This document shows positions 1,820-61,976 of a stretch of DNA of 64,000 nt, in pieces (position 1 is the first letter of the stretch; every line of letters starts with the position of its first letter). The notes under the pieces were generated by a model that was not told the DNA's origin, did no database searches, and saw only the letters and a program-made list of their open reading frames with translations. Source of the stretch: Minisyncoccota bacterium (GTDB taxonomy: Bacteria; Patescibacteriota; Minisyncoccia; UBA6257; JAGOQP01); assembly GCA_041661795.1 (NCBI GenBank), contig JBAZTS010000002.1, forward strand, positions 36,263 to 100,262, given 5' to 3'. The translations under genes were made by a program, and so were the position numbers.

Positions 1820-2245
1820 ATGGAAAAGAAAAAAACAACCAAAAAGGCGGAGAAATATTTTGAGGCGGTCGGGAGAAGAAAAACTTCTACAGCCAGAATC
1901 AGAATATATCTTTCTAAAAAAGGAGACGACGGGTTTTTGATAAACGACAAGAATATATCTTCTTATTTTCCCATAAAAAATCATCAAGATACTGTTTTGA
2001 GCCCATTTAAAAGGTTGGATAATTTAGGCGATTTTTCCTTAACCGTTAAAGTTTCAGGTGGAGGAGTTTCTTCACAAGCCCAAGCTATAAGGCATGGTAT
2101 TGCCAGAGCTTTAATAATATTCAACCCCGATTTTAGAAAAAAGCTAAAATCTCTTGGATACCTTAAAAGGGATCCTCGTATGGTTGAAAGGAAGAAATAT
2201 GGATTGAAAAAAGCCAGACGAGCCCCTCAGTGGTCAAAGAGATAA
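1820..2245 (+). CDS. rpsI: 30S ribosomal protein S9
   Basis: GGGVSSQAQAIRHGIARAL and C-terminal RDPRMVERKKYGLKKARRAPQWSKR are S9 hallmarks. Confidence 0.95.
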   Translation: MEKKKTTKKAEKYFEAVGRRKTSTARIRIYLSKKGDDGFLINDKNISSYFPIKNHQDTVLSPFKRLDNLGDFSLTVKVSGGGVSSQAQAIRHGIARALIIFNPDFRKKLKSLGYLKRDPRMVERKKYGLKKARRAPQWSKR

Positions 2246-2247
2246 TT

Positions 2248-2316
2248 GGTATCTTGTAGCTTGTGATGTGTATTTTGGATGATAACCAGATACGAGCTAC
2301 TAAATACTAGCTACTA
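2248..2316 (+). terminator. Imperfect hairpin built of GT-rich and AC-rich words after rpsI (probable terminator)
   Basis: ggtatcttgtagcttgtgatgtg ... cagatacgagctactaaatactagctacta. It shares words (agatacgagctacta, tagctac) with the 21519-21596 hairpin. Confidence 0.4.
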
Positions 2317-2321
2317 ATAAC

Positions 2322-2756
2322 ATGACTGTTTCCCTAAAACCAATAGTTATCTTTTTTGTTGTTGTATTTATCATCTATATACCCACAATGATTTTTCAGT
2401 GGTATGTAGATTTACCTTGGATTGATATCCCTTTGCACCTAATGGGTGGAGCTTGGGTAGCTTTGCTTTTCTTTCGTCTTTTTGGAGACCTGTTTTTTGA
2501 GAAACTCTATGAACACAAATATGAGGCGGCTAGAGTTTTAATTTTGGCTGTGGCCTTTAGTGTATTAATAGGAGTTTTTTGGGAATTCTTTGAATATCTA
2601 CTCACTCAATATACCCCCATTGAATTTCAAGGGAGCTTGACTGATACCATGGGAGATCTTTTAATGGATATATTAGGTTCTCTGGCTATGGCTTATTTTA
2701 TCCTTTTTTATCTTTTCCCCAAGAAGAGGCAGGTCGTCTCTCAATTAGAAGGATAA
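2322..2756 (+). CDS. Hypothetical integral membrane protein (4 predicted TM segments)
   Basis: 144-aa ORF with hydrophobic stretches; no family recognised. Confidence 0.5.
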   Translation: MTVSLKPIVIFFVVVFIIYIPTMIFQWYVDLPWIDIPLHLMGGAWVALLFFRLFGDLFFEKLYEHKYEAARVLILAVAFSVLIGVFWEFFEYLLTQYTPIEFQGSLTDTMGDLLMDILGSLAMAYFILFYLFPKKRQVVSQLEG

Positions 2757-23979: not shown

Positions 23980-25950
23980 ATGAGTATTTTAAAAAGAACA
24001 TTAATTTTTCTTTTTGGGGCGTTTATTCTTTTTTCTGTCGGAAATTTTGCCTATGCTCAAGGGGCTGATTCTTTAAAATATTACTATTACAAATTAATAG
24101 ACGTTTCTTTGTTTGTTAATTCCGACTCAAGCGTTAATGTAACGGAAAAACAAACGTTCAGTTATCAAGGGAATTTTCATAAAGGATGGAGAAGTATCAA
24201 CTTAGACGGGATTGGCGAAGTGAGTGACGTTTCTATTGTAGATGGAACTACTGGAAAGGCGCTAGAATATTCATATTCAAAACTCAGCCCCGAGGATTCA
24301 TCCAGCTGGGGGAAATTTACTCATTATAAATCTAGTGGAGACGAAGGAGTTTATCAAAATATTGAGTGGTACTATAATCTCTCCGATACTGACCACGATT
24401 GGATTATAAGATATAAAATTGCGGATTCAGTTTCTTTTTATGATAATTATGATCGTCTTTATTTGGATATTTTTTCTGACAGTGCTTATAACGTTCCGAT
24501 AGATCAGGTGGATGTCTCTGTTTATTTCCCCGGGCATACTTTGGACCAAAATTATCAGGCATTATATTACAGGTCTTTTGGCAAAAACGGAGATTTTACA
24601 CTAAATCAAAATAGTAATACTCTCGTGTCAAAGGCCTCCAATTTTTCTTCAAAGGAATTCTTAACTGTTGATGTTAAATTTCCAAAGGGGATTGTTGTTG
24701 AAATTTTTAGACCCAAGGCGTCTTTAGGAGATCTTTGGGGAATATTTGCGTCCATAGCTATCTCAATTATTTGTCTTATCATCGGATTTTTCTATTGGCT
24801 TTTTCAGGAGAAATTTAAAAAGGGCAAAGGAGTTATAATTCCGCAATATGAACCGCCAAAAGGCATTAAGCCGGCCATGGCCGAGTTTGTGATAAAAGAA
24901 TCGGTTGGACCCAAAGGAATATCTGCTACTATTGTGGATTTGATTGTCAGGAAATATATAGAGATTGAAGAAATGCCCGTAAAAAAATCAAAGATGCTTC
25001 TTCTCAAGATATTTGTGGGGATTATTCCTCTTGCTGTTTTAGCATCCTTTCTCGTATCTGTTTTGCTTTCTGACGCCGGAAGTGTTTTTTTTGGACTGTG
25101 GCCCTTCTTTGCCATTATAATTGTTATTTCTTTGGCTAAAATATTTTTCTCTTTTGGAAAGAATTTTTCTAAGACGCGTAAGTCATTTAAAATGATTTTA
25201 ATTAAGGACTATCAAAATGATCTACATTTAAACCATTATGAAAAGAAACTTCTTGATACGATTTTCTCTGAAAATAACAGTTTAATGTTTGGATGGGGTA
25301 TTCCTTTTTCAGAATCCGCAAAGTTTAGAAAAATGTATAGCGGAATTTTGGAATTTAAAAAAGAAGTTGGAGAAGAGTTGGAAAAAATAAGCGGAATATA
25401 CACGGCTTCTCCATCCAAGGAATACAGGTGGAAAGTCAGAGTTTTTCTTTCTTATATATTAGCTACCGGAATATTCATATTTGGTTCGTTCTTTTCTGTC
25501 TTTGTGGGCGGAGTGGAATATTCTCATCAGATGGTAATGTTTTGGGCTTATGGTTTTGCCGCCATTTATTCATTGCGTTCTTTTATAAAATACGAAACCC
25601 GGCTTTCTCACGAGGGGAATATTTTAAAAGAACATCTCTTGGGTTTTAAATATTTTTTGGAAACGGTTGAGGGAAGAAGAATACAGGATCTAACTCCGGA
25701 AATGTTCCAGACATTTTTTCCTTACGCGGTTGTTTTTGGAATAGAAAGCAAGTGGACTAATCATTTTTCATCTTTATTTATTCAAGACCAGCAACTTTCA
25801 GGCGGGTATATTAATCCGTCCATAGCGGTTGGACTTTCTTCGTCTTTGTCGTCTGCTTTTAATGTTGGCGCAACTGGAGGAGGAAGTGGTGGATTTGGAG
25901 GCGGAGGCGCAGGTGGTGGTGGAGGAGGCGGTGGCGGTGGAGCCAGTTAG
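23980..25950 (+). CDS. DUF2207 domain membrane protein with poly-glycine tail
   Basis: Signal peptide, then the N-terminal beta domain (VNVTEKQTFSYQGNFHKGWRSI), several TM segments, and a C-terminal GGGSGGFGGGGAGGGGGGGGGG tail. AAAGGAGG lies 8 nt upstream of the ATG at 23980. Confidence 0.8.
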   Translation: MSILKRTLIFLFGAFILFSVGNFAYAQGADSLKYYYYKLIDVSLFVNSDSSVNVTEKQTFSYQGNFHKGWRSINLDGIGEVSDVSIVDGTTGKALEYSYSKLSPEDSSSWGKFTHYKSSGDEGVYQNIEWYYNLSDTDHDWIIRYKIADSVSFYDNYDRLYLDIFSDSAYNVPIDQVDVSVYFPGHTLDQNYQALYYRSFGKNGDFTLNQNSNTLVSKASNFSSKEFLTVDVKFPKGIVVEIFRPKASLGDLWGIFASIAISIICLIIGFFYWLFQEKFKKGKGVIIPQYEPPKGIKPAMAEFVIKESVGPKGISATIVDLIVRKYIEIEEMPVKKSKMLLLKIFVGIIPLAVLASFLVSVLLSDAGSVFFGLWPFFAIIIVISLAKIFFSFGKNFSKTRKSFKMILIKDYQNDLHLNHYEKKLLDTIFSENNSLMFGWGIPFSESAKFRKMYSGILEFKKEVGEELEKISGIYTASPSKEYRWKVRVFLSYILATGIFIFGSFFSVFVGGVEYSHQMVMFWAYGFAAIYSLRSFIKYETRLSHEGNILKEHLLGFKYFLETVEGRRIQDLTPEMFQTFFPYAVVFGIESKWTNHFSSLFIQDQQLSGGYINPSIAVGLSSSLSSAFNVGATGGGSGGFGGGGAGGGGGGGGGGAS

Positions 25951-37418: not shown

Positions 37419-38006
37419 ATGAAAAAAATAGCTTTTCTTACGGCTTTTTTGGTCTTGGGAGTAATCTTAGTATCCGGCGTAGCTAAAGCCGAATCTACTG
37501 ACGGAGTAGTAACAGTTGTAAGTCAGGAAGAGGTTTTAACTCCAGAGCTTTCTCAAATTCTTAAAGATGGATTGGATGCTTTGGAAATTACCTTAAATCA
37601 GGTAAAAGCTCGTCTTGACTCTCAGTTGATCTCAGAAGAGAAAAAACCGATTGTTGACCAAAGTTTGGTGATTATAAAAAATAGCTTGGTAACTATTGAT
37701 TATACTCTTGAAACTTTAAGCTTAGCTCCGTCTGCCGATTCGTCCGTTGCTTCCGATGTAAATCTTTCTCCGATTGTTATTAATCCGGCGGAAAATCAAG
37801 AAACATCCAATGTCGCATCTAAAGATAACTTGCTGACAGGAACAGTGTCTAATAAAACAACTTTGACTGTTGTGGGAGCGATTGTGGGATTAGCGCTGAT
37901 AGGACTAATAATGTGGTTTATTATGCGGAAACCAAAATCTAAAACCCTTCAAACAGTTCAGACGCATCAAACTCAAGAATCTTCAGATATTCCAAAACAG
38001 GCCTAA
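37419..38006 (+). CDS. Secreted protein with C-terminal TM anchor
   Basis: Signal peptide (FLTAFLVLGVILVSGVAKA) and a C-terminal TM segment (LTVVGAIVGLALIGLIMWFIM). Confidence 0.5.
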   Translation: MKKIAFLTAFLVLGVILVSGVAKAESTDGVVTVVSQEEVLTPELSQILKDGLDALEITLNQVKARLDSQLISEEKKPIVDQSLVIIKNSLVTIDYTLETLSLAPSADSSVASDVNLSPIVINPAENQETSNVASKDNLLTGTVSNKTTLTVVGAIVGLALIGLIMWFIMRKPKSKTLQTVQTHQTQESSDIPKQA

Positions 38007-38141
38007 AAATAAATCCTCTCATTTCGAGAGGATTTATTTTTATAATATTTTGTGTAATTTTTATATCTATCATTTCTTGCTACAGCAACCAGATTTATAT
38101 ATAACCGGTACTTAATATGTAATTTTTTGTATATAGTATTT

Positions 38142-38167
38142 GGTATACGGTATACGATATTCGGTAT
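38142..38167. repeat. 26-nt word repeat (ggtatacggtatacgatattcggtat), inverted copy of 51147-51172
   Basis: 24/26 identical to the reverse complement of 51147-51172. Lies immediately after the dnaX stop. Confidence 0.7.
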
Positions 38168-38168
38168 T

Positions 38169-39272
38169 CTATTTTAGATTCTCTATTATAGCTATCTCAA
38201 AGGGCACCAAGGGGAAAGGATTGTATTTCATTTGGGAGTAGGCGGTGATGAGCGCTTTTATAAGTTTTATCTGCTCGTCCGTATCTATTTTAGCCGAATG
38301 TTTTTTTATTTCTTTTATTTGGCTTTCGGCCAATTCCTTTTCAAATATCTTTTCCAGTTCCGGATTAAGATGTAAAGAAAGAACCCTTCTTAAATATTCT
38401 GTCAGATCTTTGTTAAATTGAAAAAGATTGTATCCCTGACTGTTTATTTCGTATAAAAATTCCAGCGACTTTTGTAAGTCCTTTTTTATGACCAAATCGG
38501 CCATTTTTATTGTTTTTAGAAAATCAACTTTTCCCAAGATGCTTTCCACGTATTCAACGGTAATATTCTTGCCCTTCATGGAAACAATCTGGTCAAAAAG
38601 AGATTCGGCATCTCTTAAACTTCCTTCAGCTAAAAAGGCAATCATTTCCAAAGCTTCTTTTTCGTATTCTACTTTTTCTTCTTTGGCGATAAATGAAAGT
38701 TTTTTTATAATCTCCTGTAGTGTCAGCTTTCTAAAATGAAATCTCTGGGTTCGGGAAACAATAGTGGGAGGGAGCTTGTCGTATTCGGTGGTGGCTAATA
38801 TAAAAACGGCATGGGCTGGCGGTTCTTCTAAAGTTTTTAAAAGAGCGTTAAATGCCTGTGGAGTGAGCATGTGAACTTCATCTATGATAAAGATTTTGTA
38901 TTTAAGATAAGAGGGGAGTGTTTTTATGTTTTCTTTGAGATTTCTTATTTCATCTATTCCTCGGTTGGAAGCGGCGTCAATTTCAACGACATCCAAAGCT
39001 CTGCCTTCTTCAACTTGTAAACAGGCGTGACATTCTCCACAGGGCTCTCCTTGCTTGGCAAAGTTTTCGTCCTCTTGTCTTTTCTGGCAGTTAATTATTT
39101 TGGAAAAGATTCTGGCGATAGTTGTTTTGCCGGTTCCTCTTGAACCGTAGAAAAGATAGGCATGAGAAATTTTACCTTCCTTAACTGAATTTTGAAGTAT
39201 GGTAACCGTATTTTCCTGACCGTAAATATCAGCAAGTTTTTTTGGTCGGTATTTTCTATAAATAGCTAACAT
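38169..39272 (-). CDS. dnaX: DNA polymerase III subunit gamma/tau (short form)
   Basis: YRPKKLADIYGQ, HAYLFYGSRGTGKTT, the zinc module CGECHACL, IFIIDEVHMLT and SRTQRF. Confidence 0.93.
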   Translation of the reverse strand: MLAIYRKYRPKKLADIYGQENTVTILQNSVKEGKISHAYLFYGSRGTGKTTIARIFSKIINCQKRQEDENFAKQGEPCGECHACLQVEEGRALDVVEIDAASNRGIDEIRNLKENIKTLPSYLKYKIFIIDEVHMLTPQAFNALLKTLEEPPAHAVFILATTEYDKLPPTIVSRTQRFHFRKLTLQEIIKKLSFIAKEEKVEYEKEALEMIAFLAEGSLRDAESLFDQIVSMKGKNITVEYVESILGKVDFLKTIKMADLVIKKDLQKSLEFLYEINSQGYNLFQFNKDLTEYLRRVLSLHLNPELEKIFEKELAESQIKEIKKHSAKIDTDEQIKLIKALITAYSQMKYNPFPLVPFEIAIIENLK

Positions 39273-39278
39273 ATCAAT

Positions 39279-39309
<31 letters not shown>

Positions 39310-39325
39310 TAAAGAGCTATGAAAT

Positions 39326-39923
39326 AAAAAAAGCCCGCCGGTGTCTTCCGAGGAAGTCCTGGCGGGGTGGAACAGGTGGTGCGACCTTAGCTCACTCGGT
39401 GCTGTCGAGTTCGCTCGCCCGATATACTCTCCGGGTGATACGAGAGCTCGAATCTGCCGAGACGTGACGCGTGGTCACTTTTTGCTAAGGTTTTTTGGGG
39501 TGCTGCTCCTCTTCCTGTTCGGTACTTTCTAAGAACGGTTCCCACACCGTTCTCGCCGGCGAGCTTAGCTCGCGCAGGGTAGAGGCGCCTCCTAAAGGAG
39601 GCAAAACATGAGTACAAATTCGGAATTGGATTTTTGTGAGTTTCCGGACTCACTATCTCGTTTGGTGCACCTCCCGAGAAGTCCTTTTCCTTCCACTTAT
39701 TATTGGGCCAGTTTGAGATCAGCGGTGGACACTCAAACTGTTTGCGTGCTTTCACCGAGCTTGCCGGATTTACTCGGATCTTTGGTGAGATGGCGCAACC
39801 CCACAGTTTTGACCTCCCTCAGCTGCGCGCGCAACTGAGTTGTCAGCTCACCTAGTGACAGAGGCCCCCTTTTTGACCGTTTTTTCTTCTTGGTCCGGAA
39901 GGGTTTCCGTGCTACATTTTTAT
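39326..39923 (-). ncRNA. GC-rich ~600-nt transcription unit of unknown identity (large structured RNA candidate)
   Basis: It runs from a near-consensus promoter (39930-39957) to a strong terminator (cccgccagg...ccggcggg plus U7). It is dense in local hairpins (gcgagc-tta-gctcgc, gcctcc-taaa-ggaggc, cagtttgag...ctcaaactg, gtgagt...actcac). Only composition-type ORFs are present. Confidence 0.4.
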
Positions 39924-39929
39924 GCCTGT

Positions 39930-39957
39930 ATTATACTCCTTTTGTTTTATTTGTCAA
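39930..39957 (-). promoter_or_regulatory. Sigma-70-type promoter TTGACA-16-TATAAT driving the GC-rich unit
   Basis: The minus strand reads ttgacaaataaaacaaaaggagtataat. Both hexamers are perfect. Confidence 0.6.
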
Positions 39958-40020
39958 GTACCCATAATAAAGTTCTAAAAACCTTGGAATTTAGTGTTTT
40001 TGGCTATATAATTAATTAGT

Positions 40021-40737
40021 ATGTTTGAAATGAAGTCGGTTGAGTTCTCTGGGCCCCTGGACAAGCTTTTGGAACTTATTGAGGGGAAAAAAATGGATAT
40101 AACCAGAATCAGTTTAGCCGAAGTGACGGCTGATTTTTTGACATATCTTAAAGACCTAACGCAGGCAAATCAAGAAAATAAAAATGACTCTCTTTCAAGA
40201 ATAATAGCTGATTTTTTAGTGGTGGCTTCTCAATTGATTTTGATAAAATCTAAAGCTATACTGCCCGAGATAGAACTTTCTGAAGAGGAAGAGGAGAGCA
40301 TTCAAGATTTGGAGAAACGCTTGGAGCTTTACAATCAAATCAAACCGATGTTGGCTGTCTTAAAAAAATCGTGGAAAGAAAACAGTCCCTCTTTTTCAAG
40401 AGAAATGTTTTCTTCAATACAACCGGTTTTCTATCCTCCCTTAAAAATTTCAATAAATGACTTAAAACTTTCACTGCAGTCGCTGGTTGATTCGCTGGGA
40501 TCATTTATTCTGGAAACGGAAAAGATAGAAAGACAAATATTTACGCTGGAGGAAAAAGTGGCAGAACTTTCCCAAAGAATTACAGATGGGATTTCAAAGT
40601 TTTCCCAGGTTATTTCAAAGAAATCAAGACAGGAGGCGATTGTTATGTTTTTAGCCCTGCTTCACTTGTTAAGAGATCAGGTTCTAAGAGTCAAACAATC
40701 GGAAATTTTTAAAGAAATAGAATTAGAAAGAGTATAA
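40021..40737 (+). CDS. scpA: Segregation and condensation protein A
   Basis: FSGPLDKLLELIEGKKMDITRISLAEVTADFL is typical of the ScpA N-terminus. scpB follows. Confidence 0.9.
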   Translation: MFEMKSVEFSGPLDKLLELIEGKKMDITRISLAEVTADFLTYLKDLTQANQENKNDSLSRIIADFLVVASQLILIKSKAILPEIELSEEEEESIQDLEKRLELYNQIKPMLAVLKKSWKENSPSFSREMFSSIQPVFYPPLKISINDLKLSLQSLVDSLGSFILETEKIERQIFTLEEKVAELSQRITDGISKFSQVISKKSRQEAIVMFLALLHLLRDQVLRVKQSEIFKEIELERV

Positions 40738-40746
40738 AATAATTTC

Positions 40747-41325
40747 ATGGAAGAAAATAAACAAAATCAAAATAATGTGGCGGCTTTGGAGGCGGTAATG
40801 TTTTTATACGGGGAACCGATGGATTTGGAAAAATTGTCCAAGGTTATGAAAATTTCTACAGAGGAAGCCAAGACGGCTCTGGAGGAATTGAAAAATAATC
40901 TCTTGTCGGAAAATAGGGGACTTATCCTTATTGAAAAAGGAGGGTCTTTTGTCTTGGCCACTAAGCCGGAGTTTTCATCTTTTTTGGATAACTTTGTCAG
41001 AGAAAATTTAAAAGAGGATTTAACTCCCGCGTCCTTGGAAACTCTCTCTTTAATCGCTTATTTTTCTCCAATTTCCAGAGCTCAAATTGATTATATCAGA
41101 GGAGTCAATTCCAGCTTTATATTAAGAAACCTACTAATAAGAGGTCTTGTGGATAGAAAAATGAAAGGTAATATGTATCTTTACGAACCAAGTTTTGATT
41201 TCTTAAAACATCTTGGACTGGAGAACATTTCCCAGCTTCCAGAATTTGTTCGCTTCCAACAGATAAAAGATAATTATTTTTCTGCAGAATCAAGTAAATC
41301 CGAAAATCAACCAGCATTCATATGA
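40747..41325 (+). CDS. scpB: Segregation and condensation protein B
   Basis: LEAVMFLYGEPM, LSLIAYFSPISRAQIDYIRGV and LLIRGLV winged-helix repeats. Confidence 0.9.
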   Translation: MEENKQNQNNVAALEAVMFLYGEPMDLEKLSKVMKISTEEAKTALEELKNNLLSENRGLILIEKGGSFVLATKPEFSSFLDNFVRENLKEDLTPASLETLSLIAYFSPISRAQIDYIRGVNSSFILRNLLIRGLVDRKMKGNMYLYEPSFDFLKHLGLENISQLPEFVRFQQIKDNYFSAESSKSENQPAFI

Positions 41326-54871: not shown

Positions 54872-54962
54872 CAAAACAAGTTTCGAAACCGCTTCACTGC
54901 CGTGAACAACACTACAGAAAGAGCGGTCGGAGCACTGCTCTTTCACAGAAAGGGGAACTTCG

Positions 54963-55361
54963 ATGAGTGGGATCGCTTGGTTTTTCGAGGTGTTCGCTCT
55001 GCTGTTTTTCGTGGGGACTCTGGGCGTTGCTTTCATCGGACGCCGCATCCTCAAGGCGGAGCAGGAGTCGTCGGTTCTGATGTCTTTCCTCCAGATCTGC
55101 AGTGGAGCGCTCTTCATCTTCTACGTTTTCGGACTGGGTCAACTCATGGCTCTGTCTGGACTGGAAGGTGCAAGGGCGCCCCGGTGGCTGATTCCGGGCA
55201 CCTACATCACTCTCACCATCTTCAGCGCGTTGACTCGGCTGGCTCTTCCAAGGTGGGGCAGTGACAACAAAGCGATGCAACTCTGGAGTGTCGTCAGCGT
55301 CCTGACGTTCCTACTCGGCACGTTCTGCCTCGGGGCGTACTCGTCCAACTACTTCGAGTAG
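54963..55361 (+). CDS. GC-rich 132-aa four-TM membrane protein (compositionally foreign island A)
   Basis: AAAGGGGAA SD. Four hydrophobic helices (WFFEVFALLFFVGTLGVAFI, LQICSGALFIFYVFGLGQLMAL, GTYITLTIFSALTRLAL, LWSVVSVLTFLLGTFCLGAY). Own terminator. Confidence 0.65.
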   Translation: MSGIAWFFEVFALLFFVGTLGVAFIGRRILKAEQESSVLMSFLQICSGALFIFYVFGLGQLMALSGLEGARAPRWLIPGTYITLTIFSALTRLALPRWGSDNKAMQLWSVVSVLTFLLGTFCLGAYSSNYFE

Positions 55362-55386
55362 GTCTCCTTCTTCAGCTCTTCAACTG

Positions 55387-55420
55387 GCGGCGTCTCTCAC
55401 GAGGCGCCGCACTGCTTTTT
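55387..55420 (+). terminator. Intrinsic terminator of island A
   Basis: gcggcgtctc-tcac-gaggcgccgc followed by a T-run. Confidence 0.7.
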
Positions 55421-55467
55421 ATATGGTTATAAAATTTATATAAATTTCCCCGTCAATATAAATCCGC

Positions 55468-57269: not shown

Positions 57270-57306
57270 ACCATTACAATTAGAACGATCGTTCTAATTG
57301 TAATGG
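57270..57306. repeat. Palindromic element copy c
   Basis: accattacaattagaacgatcgttctaattgtaatgg lies 24 nt upstream of the 56685-57245 gene start. Confidence 0.9.
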
Positions 57307-57417: not shown

Positions 57418-57570
57418 TTATGGGCGGTCCGGGATGGGTGGAGCGGGTGCGGGCTTGACCACTTTGGCCACGAGGCCGATTAATATGGTCAGCATTGAAA
57501 CGGGTACTACGGTGGCGATGATGACGGACGATTCCACCACCACCAGAGACCACTTGACTAGGTAGTGCAT
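57418..57570 (-). CDS. GC-rich island B gene 4: 50-aa hydrophobic protein (not in the ORF track)
   Basis: AAAGGAGGU lies 4 nt upstream of the ATG. Product is MHYLVKWSLVVVESSVIIATVVPVSMLTILIGLVAKVVKPAPAPPIPDRP. The start overlaps the gene 3 stop. The stop codon sits in the loop of the ggaccgc...gcggtcc hairpin. Confidence 0.55.
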   Translation of the reverse strand: MHYLVKWSLVVVESSVIIATVVPVSMLTILIGLVAKVVKPAPAPPIPDRP

Positions 57571-57689
57571 TCAACCTCCTTTCTTCTGAGAATCTTGGTG
57601 ATCCACAGATAGAGGTTGTATCCTGTTTGAATAACGTGGGCCATCTTTTGGCCCAGTATTGTCGTCCGATGAAACGTTGTTGTAGACAT
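57558..57689 (-). CDS. GC-rich island B gene 3: 43-aa protein
   Basis: AAAGGAGA lies 4 nt upstream of the ATG. Product is MSTTTFHRTTILGQKMAHVIQTGYNLYLWITKILRRKEVECTT. The longer 100-aa track ORF in this frame lacks an SD. Confidence 0.45.
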   Translation of the reverse strand: MSTTTFHRTTILGQKMAHVIQTGYNLYLWITKILRRKEVECTT

Positions 57690-57703
57690 CACGTCTCCTT
57701 TGG

Positions 57704-57949
57704 TTAGGCGATGGCGCCGGGGTATTCTTCGGAGATCTTCTCGATCTCTTTTTCCTCTTTCTTCACTTGGTCTGTGAGCACAAGGAAGAAAAAGATGATG
57801 GCCATGATTCCCACAAGAGTGGCAAAGGCCCATGAAAAGCTCTTGGGGAGTTGGAACCATCGTGATAAGTGATATCCTCCAAAAGTGAGAATTACCACGG
57901 CCACGGTCGCTCCAACTTTACGGAGCAAGTTGAGTAGTCCCGGGAACAT
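57704..57949 (-). CDS. GC-rich island B gene 2: 81-aa two-TM protein with acidic/basic tail
   Basis: AAGGAGGAG lies 4 nt upstream of the ATG. TM segments are VGATVAVVILTFGGY and WAFATLVGIMAIIFFFLVL, followed by the tail KKEEKEIEKISEEY. Confidence 0.65.
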   Translation of the reverse strand: MFPGLLNLLRKVGATVAVVILTFGGYHLSRWFQLPKSFSWAFATLVGIMAIIFFFLVLTDQVKKEEKEIEKISEEYPGAIA

Positions 57950-58193
57950 TACTCTCCTCCTTTTTGGTGTACATCTTTCGAAGTTTCTCCTGTAGAGCGT
58001 TGAGCCCCGTGAAGACCAGGGCTCCGGTCAGAAACCCGATACAAGCCAACGATCCTCGGATCTCCAATCCTGGAGGCAGTGGAACTCGGTCTGCCCATAG
58101 GACCGTGAAGAAACAGGAAGCAGCAGTTGAAAGGCCAACGAAAGTGAACCAAACCACTCTTGCGATCAACTCCAGAACTTTTCCGATTTTCAT
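57918..58193 (-). CDS. GC-rich island B gene 1: 91-aa two-TM protein with charged tail
   Basis: GAGGAGGA lies 6 nt upstream of the ATG. TM segments are VVWFTFVGLSTAASCFFTVLW and LACIGFLTGALVFTGLNAL, followed by the tail QEKLRKMYTKKEES. The layout is holin-like. Confidence 0.65.
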   Translation of the reverse strand: MKIGKVLELIARVVWFTFVGLSTAASCFFTVLWADRVPLPPGLEIRGSLACIGFLTGALVFTGLNALQEKLRKMYTKKEESNVPGTTQLAP

Positions 58194-61411: not shown

Positions 61412-61941
61412 AAAAAGGGGGCTCCCGGTGTTGCTGGGAGCCCAAAGTGCGGTAAGGAGGTCAATGTACGATGCGGTGCCTGCCGTGCGTCGCTTCGCTC
61501 GTTCGGGTCTTGGTGGTTCAGATCAGGGCCAGTCGTGCCCGAAAACTTAACTTTCTGGCCCATTGCTTCTCGGCACGCATGGTTTCTCCTTGCATGGATT
61601 TTTGGTCCACGCAGCTCTGCCCTCAGCGCTTGACGGTGGCCTCGTCGTTGGTGCGGTGGTTGTTCTGACGCTGTTGCATGGGATTTCTCCTCGCGTGAAC
61701 GTCGTCGGTTGTTGGTGCTAGCTATGGCTCAAGTCAAGCTTTCTTTTCGGTGAGCTTGACGAGCAGTGCTAGCGCCTGTTCTGGGTTTCGTTTTTTATCG
61801 GTATAACCTTCACAAGGTTATACCAGGGTTTCCTTCCTGATTGGCGGTCAAGAAGGTTGTTTAATCATCCAGCATTGTCCTAACTAACGGAACGGCGGTT
61901 CGACGTCCACGTGCATCGCTTTCCTCCTTATGTAGTTTACT
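61410..61941 (-). ncRNA. GC-rich ~530-nt transcription unit (large structured RNA and/or SD-led micro-ORF cassette)
   Basis: Promoter at 61948-61976. Terminator gggctccc-agcaacac-cgggagcccc plus U7. The 5' uaaggagg...cgaugc can pair with the 3' gcaucg...ccuccuua. It contains an 11-bp GUGA-capped hairpin (ggtataacctt gtga aggttatacc). No ORF over 25 aa has a plausible start. Confidence 0.4.
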
Positions 61942-61947
61942 TATTTC

Positions 61948-61976
61948 AGGATAAAACAAAAACGGCTATTAGTCAA
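61948..61976 (-). promoter_or_regulatory. Sigma-70-type promoter TTGACT-17-TATCCT for the GC-rich unit
   Basis: The minus strand reads ttgactaatagccgtttttgttttatcct, located just after the SDR stop codon. Confidence 0.45.

Follow-up and report, generated by a model that had tools for sequence, protein, structure and literature searches.

We analyzed a 64,000-nucleotide (nt) window, a stretch of contig JBAZTS010000002.1, from a Candidatus Paceibacterota bacterium of the candidate phyla radiation (CPR; Patescibacteria), an assignment that follows from the relatives of its DnaX protein. Within this window a GC-rich unit of about 600 nt occupies the spacer between dnaX and scpA, and we describe it here as a candidate for an orphan non-coding RNA (ncRNA) gene. 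The two genes are divergent, their spacer measures 748 nt, and the unit lies upstream of dnaX and is co-oriented with it. The genes and the elements of the unit are as follows, with positions given in window coordinates.

38169-39272, minus strand: dnaX (Pfam DNA_pol3_delta2, 1.8e-46)
39326-39332, minus strand: U7 tract, separated from the preceding hairpin by one C, forming the end of the terminator
39334-39366, minus strand: intrinsic terminator hairpin CCCGCCaGG...CCgGCGGG with an inner CUUC/GAAG stem (-18.9 kcal/mol, z -3.22)
39326-39923, minus strand: predicted transcript of ~598 nt, its start placed ~7 nt past the -10 hexamer and its end at the U tract
39930-39935, minus strand: -10 hexamer TATAAT of a sigma-70-type consensus promoter
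39952-39957, minus strand: -35 hexamer TTGACA of the same promoter (12/12 consensus match, 16-nt spacer)
40021-40737, plus strand: scpA (SMC_ScpA), divergent from dnaX

The unit has the architecture of a gene. A first-pass annotation, made from the letters of the sequence, had described a perfect minus-strand TTGACA-16-TATAAT promoter, a GC hairpin with U7 at 39326-39367 and a GC-rich segment between the two, and all three features were confirmed. The promoter at 39957-39930 matches the consensus at 12/12 positions and is the sole perfect site within 38000-41000, and the hairpin at 39366-39334 folds with the energy given above, although a simple pattern scan misses this terminator because its stem is bulged. 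In 200-nt windows the GC content is 0.475-0.565 across 39300-39900, compared with 0.30-0.40 in the flanks; the ~598-nt body has 50-57% GC and the genome 36%. The edges of the GC-rich block match the promoter and terminator positions exactly. The sense strand is A-rich and U-poor (A 0.29, U 0.18). Terminal repeats or target duplications of the transposon type were sought around the unit and not found, and neither nhmmer nor blastn detected a paralog of it in the whole window.

The RNase P RNA gene of the same genome (22039-22465) is built in a similar manner. Its near-consensus promoter, TTGACT-17-TATTAT, ends 5 nt before the RNA, its terminator follows straight after, its body is GC-rich, and its sense strand is likewise A-rich and U-poor (A 0.29, U 0.21). 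In contrast to the unit, which has neither a family nor a homolog, RNase P RNA belongs to a universally conserved family and is recognized at 138.8 bits.

The unit is very probably non-coding, and no coding signal is present in it. The signal-to-noise of 3-base periodicity is 0.35 for the unit, 0.06 for a 143-codon open frame on the promoter strand and 0.53 for a 76-amino-acid (aa) open reading frame (ORF) on the other strand, whereas the coding controls reach 6.5 (dnaX), 6.9 (scpA), 4.4 (uvrA) and 6.1 and 4.3 (two ORFs of other GC-rich islands in the window). None of 500 shuffles exceeds the periodicity of any coding control, and RNase P RNA gives 1.3. Open-frame lengths are within chance on both the sense strand (143-codon frame, P=0.06) and the antisense strand (76-aa ORF, P=0.71). 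The ORFs listed in the first-pass annotation, of 122 aa on the minus strand and of 63 and 76 aa on the plus strand, are present as described, and one of them carries an apparent Shine-Dalgarno (SD) motif.

39608-39838, plus strand, antisense to the unit: 76-aa ORF with AGGAGG 6 nt upstream of its ATG, judged spurious

That the unit encodes a small protein, either this ORF or the 122-aa one on the minus strand, is extremely improbable. The AGGAGG is real, the 143-codon open frame of the promoter strand has a somewhat greater length than expected, and other GC-rich islands of the window do hold small ORFs led by SD motifs. However, the AGGAGG is just one arm of the palindrome GCCTCC-TTTA-GGAGGC, the 76-aa ORF lies on the strand opposite to that of the promoter and terminator, and no credible promoter was seen on its own (plus) strand. 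Gene calling also argues against a protein: a 15 billion-protein collection with NCBI, JGI and Logan gene calls contains none of the 76-, 122- and 63-aa ORFs but does hold ORFs of 50-132 aa from two further islands (islands 2 and 3, below) on the same contig, and the dnaX-scpA gap is without any called gene in three assemblies. None of the ORFs in the unit has a Pfam or PHROG match. A full HMMER search of the 76-aa ORF against 1.84 billion representative proteins gave no real homolog, its sole match (E=2.4e-7) being a tandem-repeat artifact for which BLASTP gives no alignment. The earlier caution that coding could not be excluded for the 76-aa ORF was correct as to the AGGAGG, but periodicity, length, gene calls and HMMER all stand against coding. 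The missing SD of the 122-aa ORF, which had been used as an argument against it, carries no weight, because in the whole window an SD-like motif precedes only 4/54 long native ORFs.

The unit is also richer in local structure than expected from its composition. With a stem of at least 5 and a loop of 3-16, it contains 15 perfect Watson-Crick hairpins, where 1000 dinucleotide shuffles lead one to expect 6.6 (P=0.004), and 85 bases paired in such hairpins, where 35 are expected (P=0.002). Every local perfect hairpin listed in the first-pass annotation was found on checking. The whole-unit fold on the promoter strand reaches -212.7 kcal/mol (z -3.35). Individual hairpins include the following.

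39709-39740, minus strand: longest perfect hairpin, 9-bp stem CAGUUUGAG/CUCAAACUG, 14-nt loop
39532-39553, minus strand: 8-bp perfect hairpin AGAACGGU/ACCGUUCU, loop GUGGGA
39559-39573, minus strand: hairpin GCGAGC-UAA-GCUCGC; the GAGCUAAGNUCGC motif is found again at 39381-39393
39587-39602, minus strand: hairpin GCCUCC-UUUA-GGAGGC; on the opposite strand its 3' arm is the apparent SD of the 76-aa ORF

No known RNA family accounts for the unit. A covariance scan of the region on both strands, as the first-pass annotation had suggested, was run with Rfam 15 over 39250-40020; it returned nothing in the unit at the gathering threshold and no family match even at E≤10 with permissive filters. The models covered include SRP (signal recognition particle) RNA, transfer-messenger RNA (tmRNA), tRNA, group I and II introns, OLE, ROOL, GOLLD and rRNA; the OLE, ROOL and GOLLD models gave no match at E≤10, and riboswitch, T-box and leader families gave none in the unit. 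Elsewhere in the window Rfam recovers RNase P RNA (RF00010, 22072-22430) and two tRNAs, and the score of the former implies that the RNAs of this genome are not generally unrecognizable. ARAGORN finds no tRNA or tmRNA in the unit. The absences reported earlier hold up as well. SRP domain IV is not seen by eye and no SRP model matches at E≤10; for a tmRNA, ARAGORN and Rfam are negative, no geometry of a T-arm plus acceptor was found, and no frame of the unit ends in an Ala-rich tag. For a group II intron, there is no match to RF00029, the 5' end of the unit is not GUGYG, and the unit has its own promoter and does not lie inside a gene.

We also weighed whether the unit might be a known RNA diverged or interrupted past recognition, namely an expanded SRP RNA, a tmRNA, or a gene for a tRNA or tmRNA into which a divergent group I intron has been inserted. 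In Firmicutes, the SRP RNA gene often lies upstream of dnaX, and the first-pass annotation had pointed to this arrangement. The analogy was not borne out: 20 related CPR loci were examined and none showed an SRP RNA ahead of dnaX, so the Firmicute ffs-dnaX arrangement does not transfer. In the relative L092 (L numbers label the loci of CPR relatives that we compared) ARAGORN calls an 89-nt tRNA-Asn(GUU) at the same position upstream of dnaX. In Patescibacteria, moreover, group I introns missed by annotation are frequent in tRNA-Asn genes, and some of them escape both RF00028 and ARAGORN (PMC13011429). Intron-containing tRNA genes of Patescibacteria, with group I introns at 35/36 (PMC13011429), resemble the unit in being GC-rich RNA genes missed by standard annotation, and a tRNA-Asn-like gene holds the same slot in L092; they differ in that the unit has no tRNA exon halves, no T-arm and no Intron_gpI match. 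The group I core has no RF00028 match at E≤10, though divergent patescibacterial introns are reported to escape this model (PMC13011429). Exon halves of a tRNA or tmRNA split by such an intron were not found: neither a T-arm nor an acceptor turned up in a search strict enough to miss the odd T-loop of the L092 tRNA also, and no D-arm was seen by eye. At ~600 nt, the unit is also longer than a tRNA together with a typical ORF-less group I intron. A split-tRNA or group I intron identity is unlikely, and with the Rfam and ARAGORN results negative in a genome whose RNase P RNA is recognized readily, a diverged known RNA of any of these kinds is very improbable.

The position of the unit raises a further alternative, namely that it serves dnaX as a long leader acting in cis, with read-through into the gene upon bypass of the terminator (attenuation). 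The terminator ends only 54 nt before the dnaX ATG, and the unit immediately precedes dnaX in the same orientation both here and in the relative L085, as do shorter units in L093 and L092. However, dnaX has its own -10 box, TATACT, 7 nt before the ATG and beyond the terminator, which makes the unit an improbable leader for it. In most relatives dnaX is expressed with no leader of this kind, regulatory leaders are normally conserved whereas the unit is not, and the riboswitch, T-box and leader families do not match. We consider attenuation very unlikely. Many ORFs in the window have a TATAAT-like box ~7 nt before the ATG, which suggests that leaderless mRNAs are widespread in this genome. The stretch between terminator and dnaX carries one further element, which is the dnaX promoter region and lies outside the RNA unit.

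39279-39311, between the terminator and dnaX: heptad tandem repeat AAGTATA x4.7, giving repeated TATACT -10-like boxes on the dnaX strand

At the corresponding place in L085 (about 2055-2095) the sequence ATACNNN is repeated about five times. The Logan assembly breaks exactly at the AAGTATA heptad repeat.

Exact-protein look-ups of DnaX, ScpA and UvrA recovered identical (100%) sequence in the Logan assemblies of SRR6484324 and SRR18595301, and the source contig is ENA ERZ27249449 k141_214873, with a length of 156 kb. The regions upstream of dnaX in related genomes, which the first-pass annotation had proposed to collect, were surveyed in 80 genome and 80 metagenome loci plus contigs reached from ScpA homologs, about 180 loci among the matches listed. 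This yielded a survey of the slot and one positional counterpart of the unit, in L085, but no sequence homolog. The divergent dnaX-scpA order is kept in the clade and the length of the spacer varies.

This window: 748 nt
L085: 756 nt (DnaX 79% and ScpA 64% identical; the nearest relative among the matches listed)
L086: 292 nt
L177: 262 nt
L088: 131 nt
L091: about 100 nt
L176: 97 nt
L173 and L174: M3 peptidase gene inserted

In L085 the dnaX-scpA slot holds a ~590-nt GC-rich (54%) unit in the same orientation and without detectable sequence likeness to ours. It has a TTGACA-17-TATACT promoter (11/12) and a terminator of -23.7 kcal/mol, folds with z -7.5 in sense and -5.4 in antisense, shows a periodicity of 0.50, and has no Rfam match. 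The two units either descend from one ancestor, diverged past recognition with length, composition and foldedness maintained, or came to occupy the site in two separate events. Three other relatives carry RNA-like units near dnaX, each bounded by a promoter and a terminator, all unannotated and none in Rfam. In L093, a ~290-nt GC-rich promoter/terminator unit (2690-2985, z -4.0) lies upstream of and co-oriented with dnaX; in L092, the tRNA-Asn(GUU)-like promoter/terminator unit (2810-2898) before dnaX is odd, with an aberrant T-loop; and in L112, a ~560-nt GC-rich unit (1830-2420, minus strand, z -7.4) lies 0.6-1.1 kb upstream of dnaX, past an intervening gene. As a separate observation, L085 carries a four-helix-bundle gene of the bAvd / 23S_rRNA_IVP type just downstream of dnaX (L085:567-926), and no link between it and the RNA unit was seen. 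Genes of the bAvd type often accompany diversity-generating retroelements.

The window holds three further GC-rich islands, making four in all within 25 kb.

54963-55361, plus strand: island 2, 132-aa membrane-protein gene between uvrB and uvrC (periodicity 6.1; NCBI hypothetical protein)
57418-58193, minus strand: island 3, operon of four small ORFs of 91, 81, 43 and 50 aa (clear periodicity; annotated hypothetical proteins)
61412-61976, minus strand: island 4, ORF-free unit of ~550 nt (GC about 0.52), a second orphan ncRNA candidate

Island 2, with its flanks (54880-55440), has its own TTGACT-17-TATACT promoter and a terminator, and its protein belongs to no Pfam or PHROG family. In island 3, three of the four ORFs are hydrophobic and each has a strong SD (AGGAGG or AGGAG); this use of SD motifs stands out, as native genes of this genome almost never use them. 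Both islands resemble the unit in having about 52-56% GC, a native-type promoter and terminator, orphan status and a sense z near -4, but they consist of SD-led membrane-protein ORFs with codon periodicity and annotated genes, none of which the unit has. Island 4 has a TTGACT-17-TATCCT promoter-like site, a -17 kcal/mol terminator with a U run, a sense fold z of -6.65 and a periodicity of 1.17; it contains only tiny SD-led ORFs (10-20 aa) and has no Rfam match. A comparison of five GC-rich units for common motifs or protein-level similarity found none. Two other observations concern the window. A GC-rich blip at ~25.8-26.1 kb is the Gly-rich (GGN repeat) C-terminal tail (25880-25950) of a 673-aa protein and not an RNA. 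At 57271-57306, just upstream of a PaaX_M-like 186-aa ORF, there is a 36-nt perfect AT-rich palindrome, CCATTACAATTAGAACGA|TCGTTCTAATTGTAATGG, which is probably an operator.

These islands bear on what we consider a somewhat unlikely explanation: that the unit is a recent or decaying foreign GC-rich cassette, transcribed but without function at the RNA level, which arrived in the same wave of insertion as the small membrane-protein genes. About 470 kb of other AT-rich CPR loci contain few GC-rich islands of such size, so this genome may have acquired GC-rich cassettes, the unit possibly being one of them. Of the four such islands in this 25 kb, at least two are coding and built to the same design of native-type promoter, payload and terminator. 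Most relatives lack the unit, the slot in L085 is filled by a different sequence, conservation of any kind was not found, and perfect palindromes suit a young sequence or features acting at the DNA level. On the other hand, promoter and terminator mark the precise limits of the GC-rich block, neither coding periodicity nor a decayed frame can be traced in it, and the excess of hairpins and folding is significant. Useless DNA with a perfect consensus promoter would moreover be unexpected in a small, streamlined genome, and phage and plasmid collections give no match: blastn of the unit returned only short AT-rich chance matches from them, and its exact hairpin pattern was not found in IMG/VR.

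We favor, with a probability of about one half, the explanation that the unit is a lineage-specific, independently transcribed, non-coding gene for a hairpin-rich stable RNA. The promoter/terminator pair that delimits the unit, its non-coding character, its folding beyond that of shuffles and its lack of a known family agree with the novel large ncRNA that the first-pass annotation had proposed, but no homolog was found among the loci surveyed and the L085 unit is unrelated in sequence. A number of observations weigh against this explanation. In AT-rich genomes, GC-rich islands are a classic signature of structured RNAs, a premise of the first-pass annotation that is weakened here: the islands at 54963-55361 and 57418-58193 are protein-coding, and because they are small membrane-protein genes GC-richness alone is not evidence for an RNA. 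Nor do fold z-scores separate RNA genes in this window, because the GC-rich coding islands also have sense z-scores near -4. The opposite strand of the unit folds with a more negative z (-5.13) than the promoter strand, and its hairpins exist equally on both strands because they are mostly perfect Watson-Crick palindromes. Every other copy found is 100% identical, which leaves no population variation to work with, and nhmmer, blastn and tblastx found no homolog of the unit in the related loci surveyed. Relatives with 74-78% DnaX identity have gaps of 131-292 nt at the site, and others of 97-262 nt; because most relatives have only such short gaps, the unit would be dispensable or recent. Finally, nhmmer, blastn, tblastx and k-mers found nothing in common between the unit and that of L085, and RNAalifold on a MAFFT alignment of the pair gave a folding term of -21.6 kcal/mol, compared with -213 and -263 kcal/mol when each sequence is folded by itself.

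If the unit is indeed a stable RNA gene, its expression can be pictured as follows. Transcription would start near 39923 from the sigma-70-type consensus promoter, polymerase would cross ~598 nt of GC-rich, A-rich and U-poor body, and the strong intrinsic terminator would end the transcript 54 nt short of dnaX, which would most likely be transcribed separately, as a leaderless mRNA, from its own -10 box. The RNA would remain untranslated, its stable local hairpins strung together by A-rich linkers, and it would most likely act in trans as a stable RNA, a conceivable role being that of a protein-binding scaffold or decoy. Both the transcription of the unit and the stability of its RNA are what we infer from this architecture.

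A broader and rather improbable idea is that the unit, its L085 counterpart, island 4, and the units of L112 and L093 represent one as yet unrecognized type of patescibacterial RNA. Its members would be expressed strongly, measure 300-600 nt and fold densely, and would keep their length, GC content, foldedness and sometimes their slot, while their sequence turned over too fast for homology searches. Conservation of shape or of composition only, as in 6S RNA and eukaryotic long non-coding RNAs, offers a likeness. At present the unit is best described as a candidate orphan ncRNA gene, with no new conserved class established.

Among known systems, OLE, ROOL and GOLLD are large ornate bacterial RNAs of unknown function for which cryo-EM structures are available (PMC12286853). 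The unit resembles them in its ~600-nt size class and in being a stand-alone, ORF-free, folded GC-rich block in an AT-rich genome. In contrast, these families are defined by many covarying homologs and have conserved multi-junction cores, whereas the unit is a singleton without a model match and consists mainly of simple perfect hairpins. The host phylum is also different, and in Patescibacteria the unit occurs without a tRNA or prophage context. The SRP RNA gene of Firmicutes (ffs/scr) is similar in being bounded by a promoter and a terminator and in lying directly upstream of dnaX in the same orientation. However, the unit is two to six times too long for an SRP RNA and has neither the domain IV motif nor an SRP model match; most relatives have nothing at the site, and the 20 related CPR loci examined show no SRP RNA there.

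CPR bacteria have tiny genomes, and their RNA biology is poorly known. For genome scans, the locus counsels caution, as here codon periodicity and gene-call controls, and not fold z-scores, separate the kinds of GC-rich island. If the unit is inert acquired DNA, the dnaX-scpA spacer would be a variable insertion slot in the clade. If it is real and abundant, its RNA would rank with the largest non-ribosomal RNAs that such a genome encodes, and its structure would be worth determining, as were those of OLE, ROOL and GOLLD.

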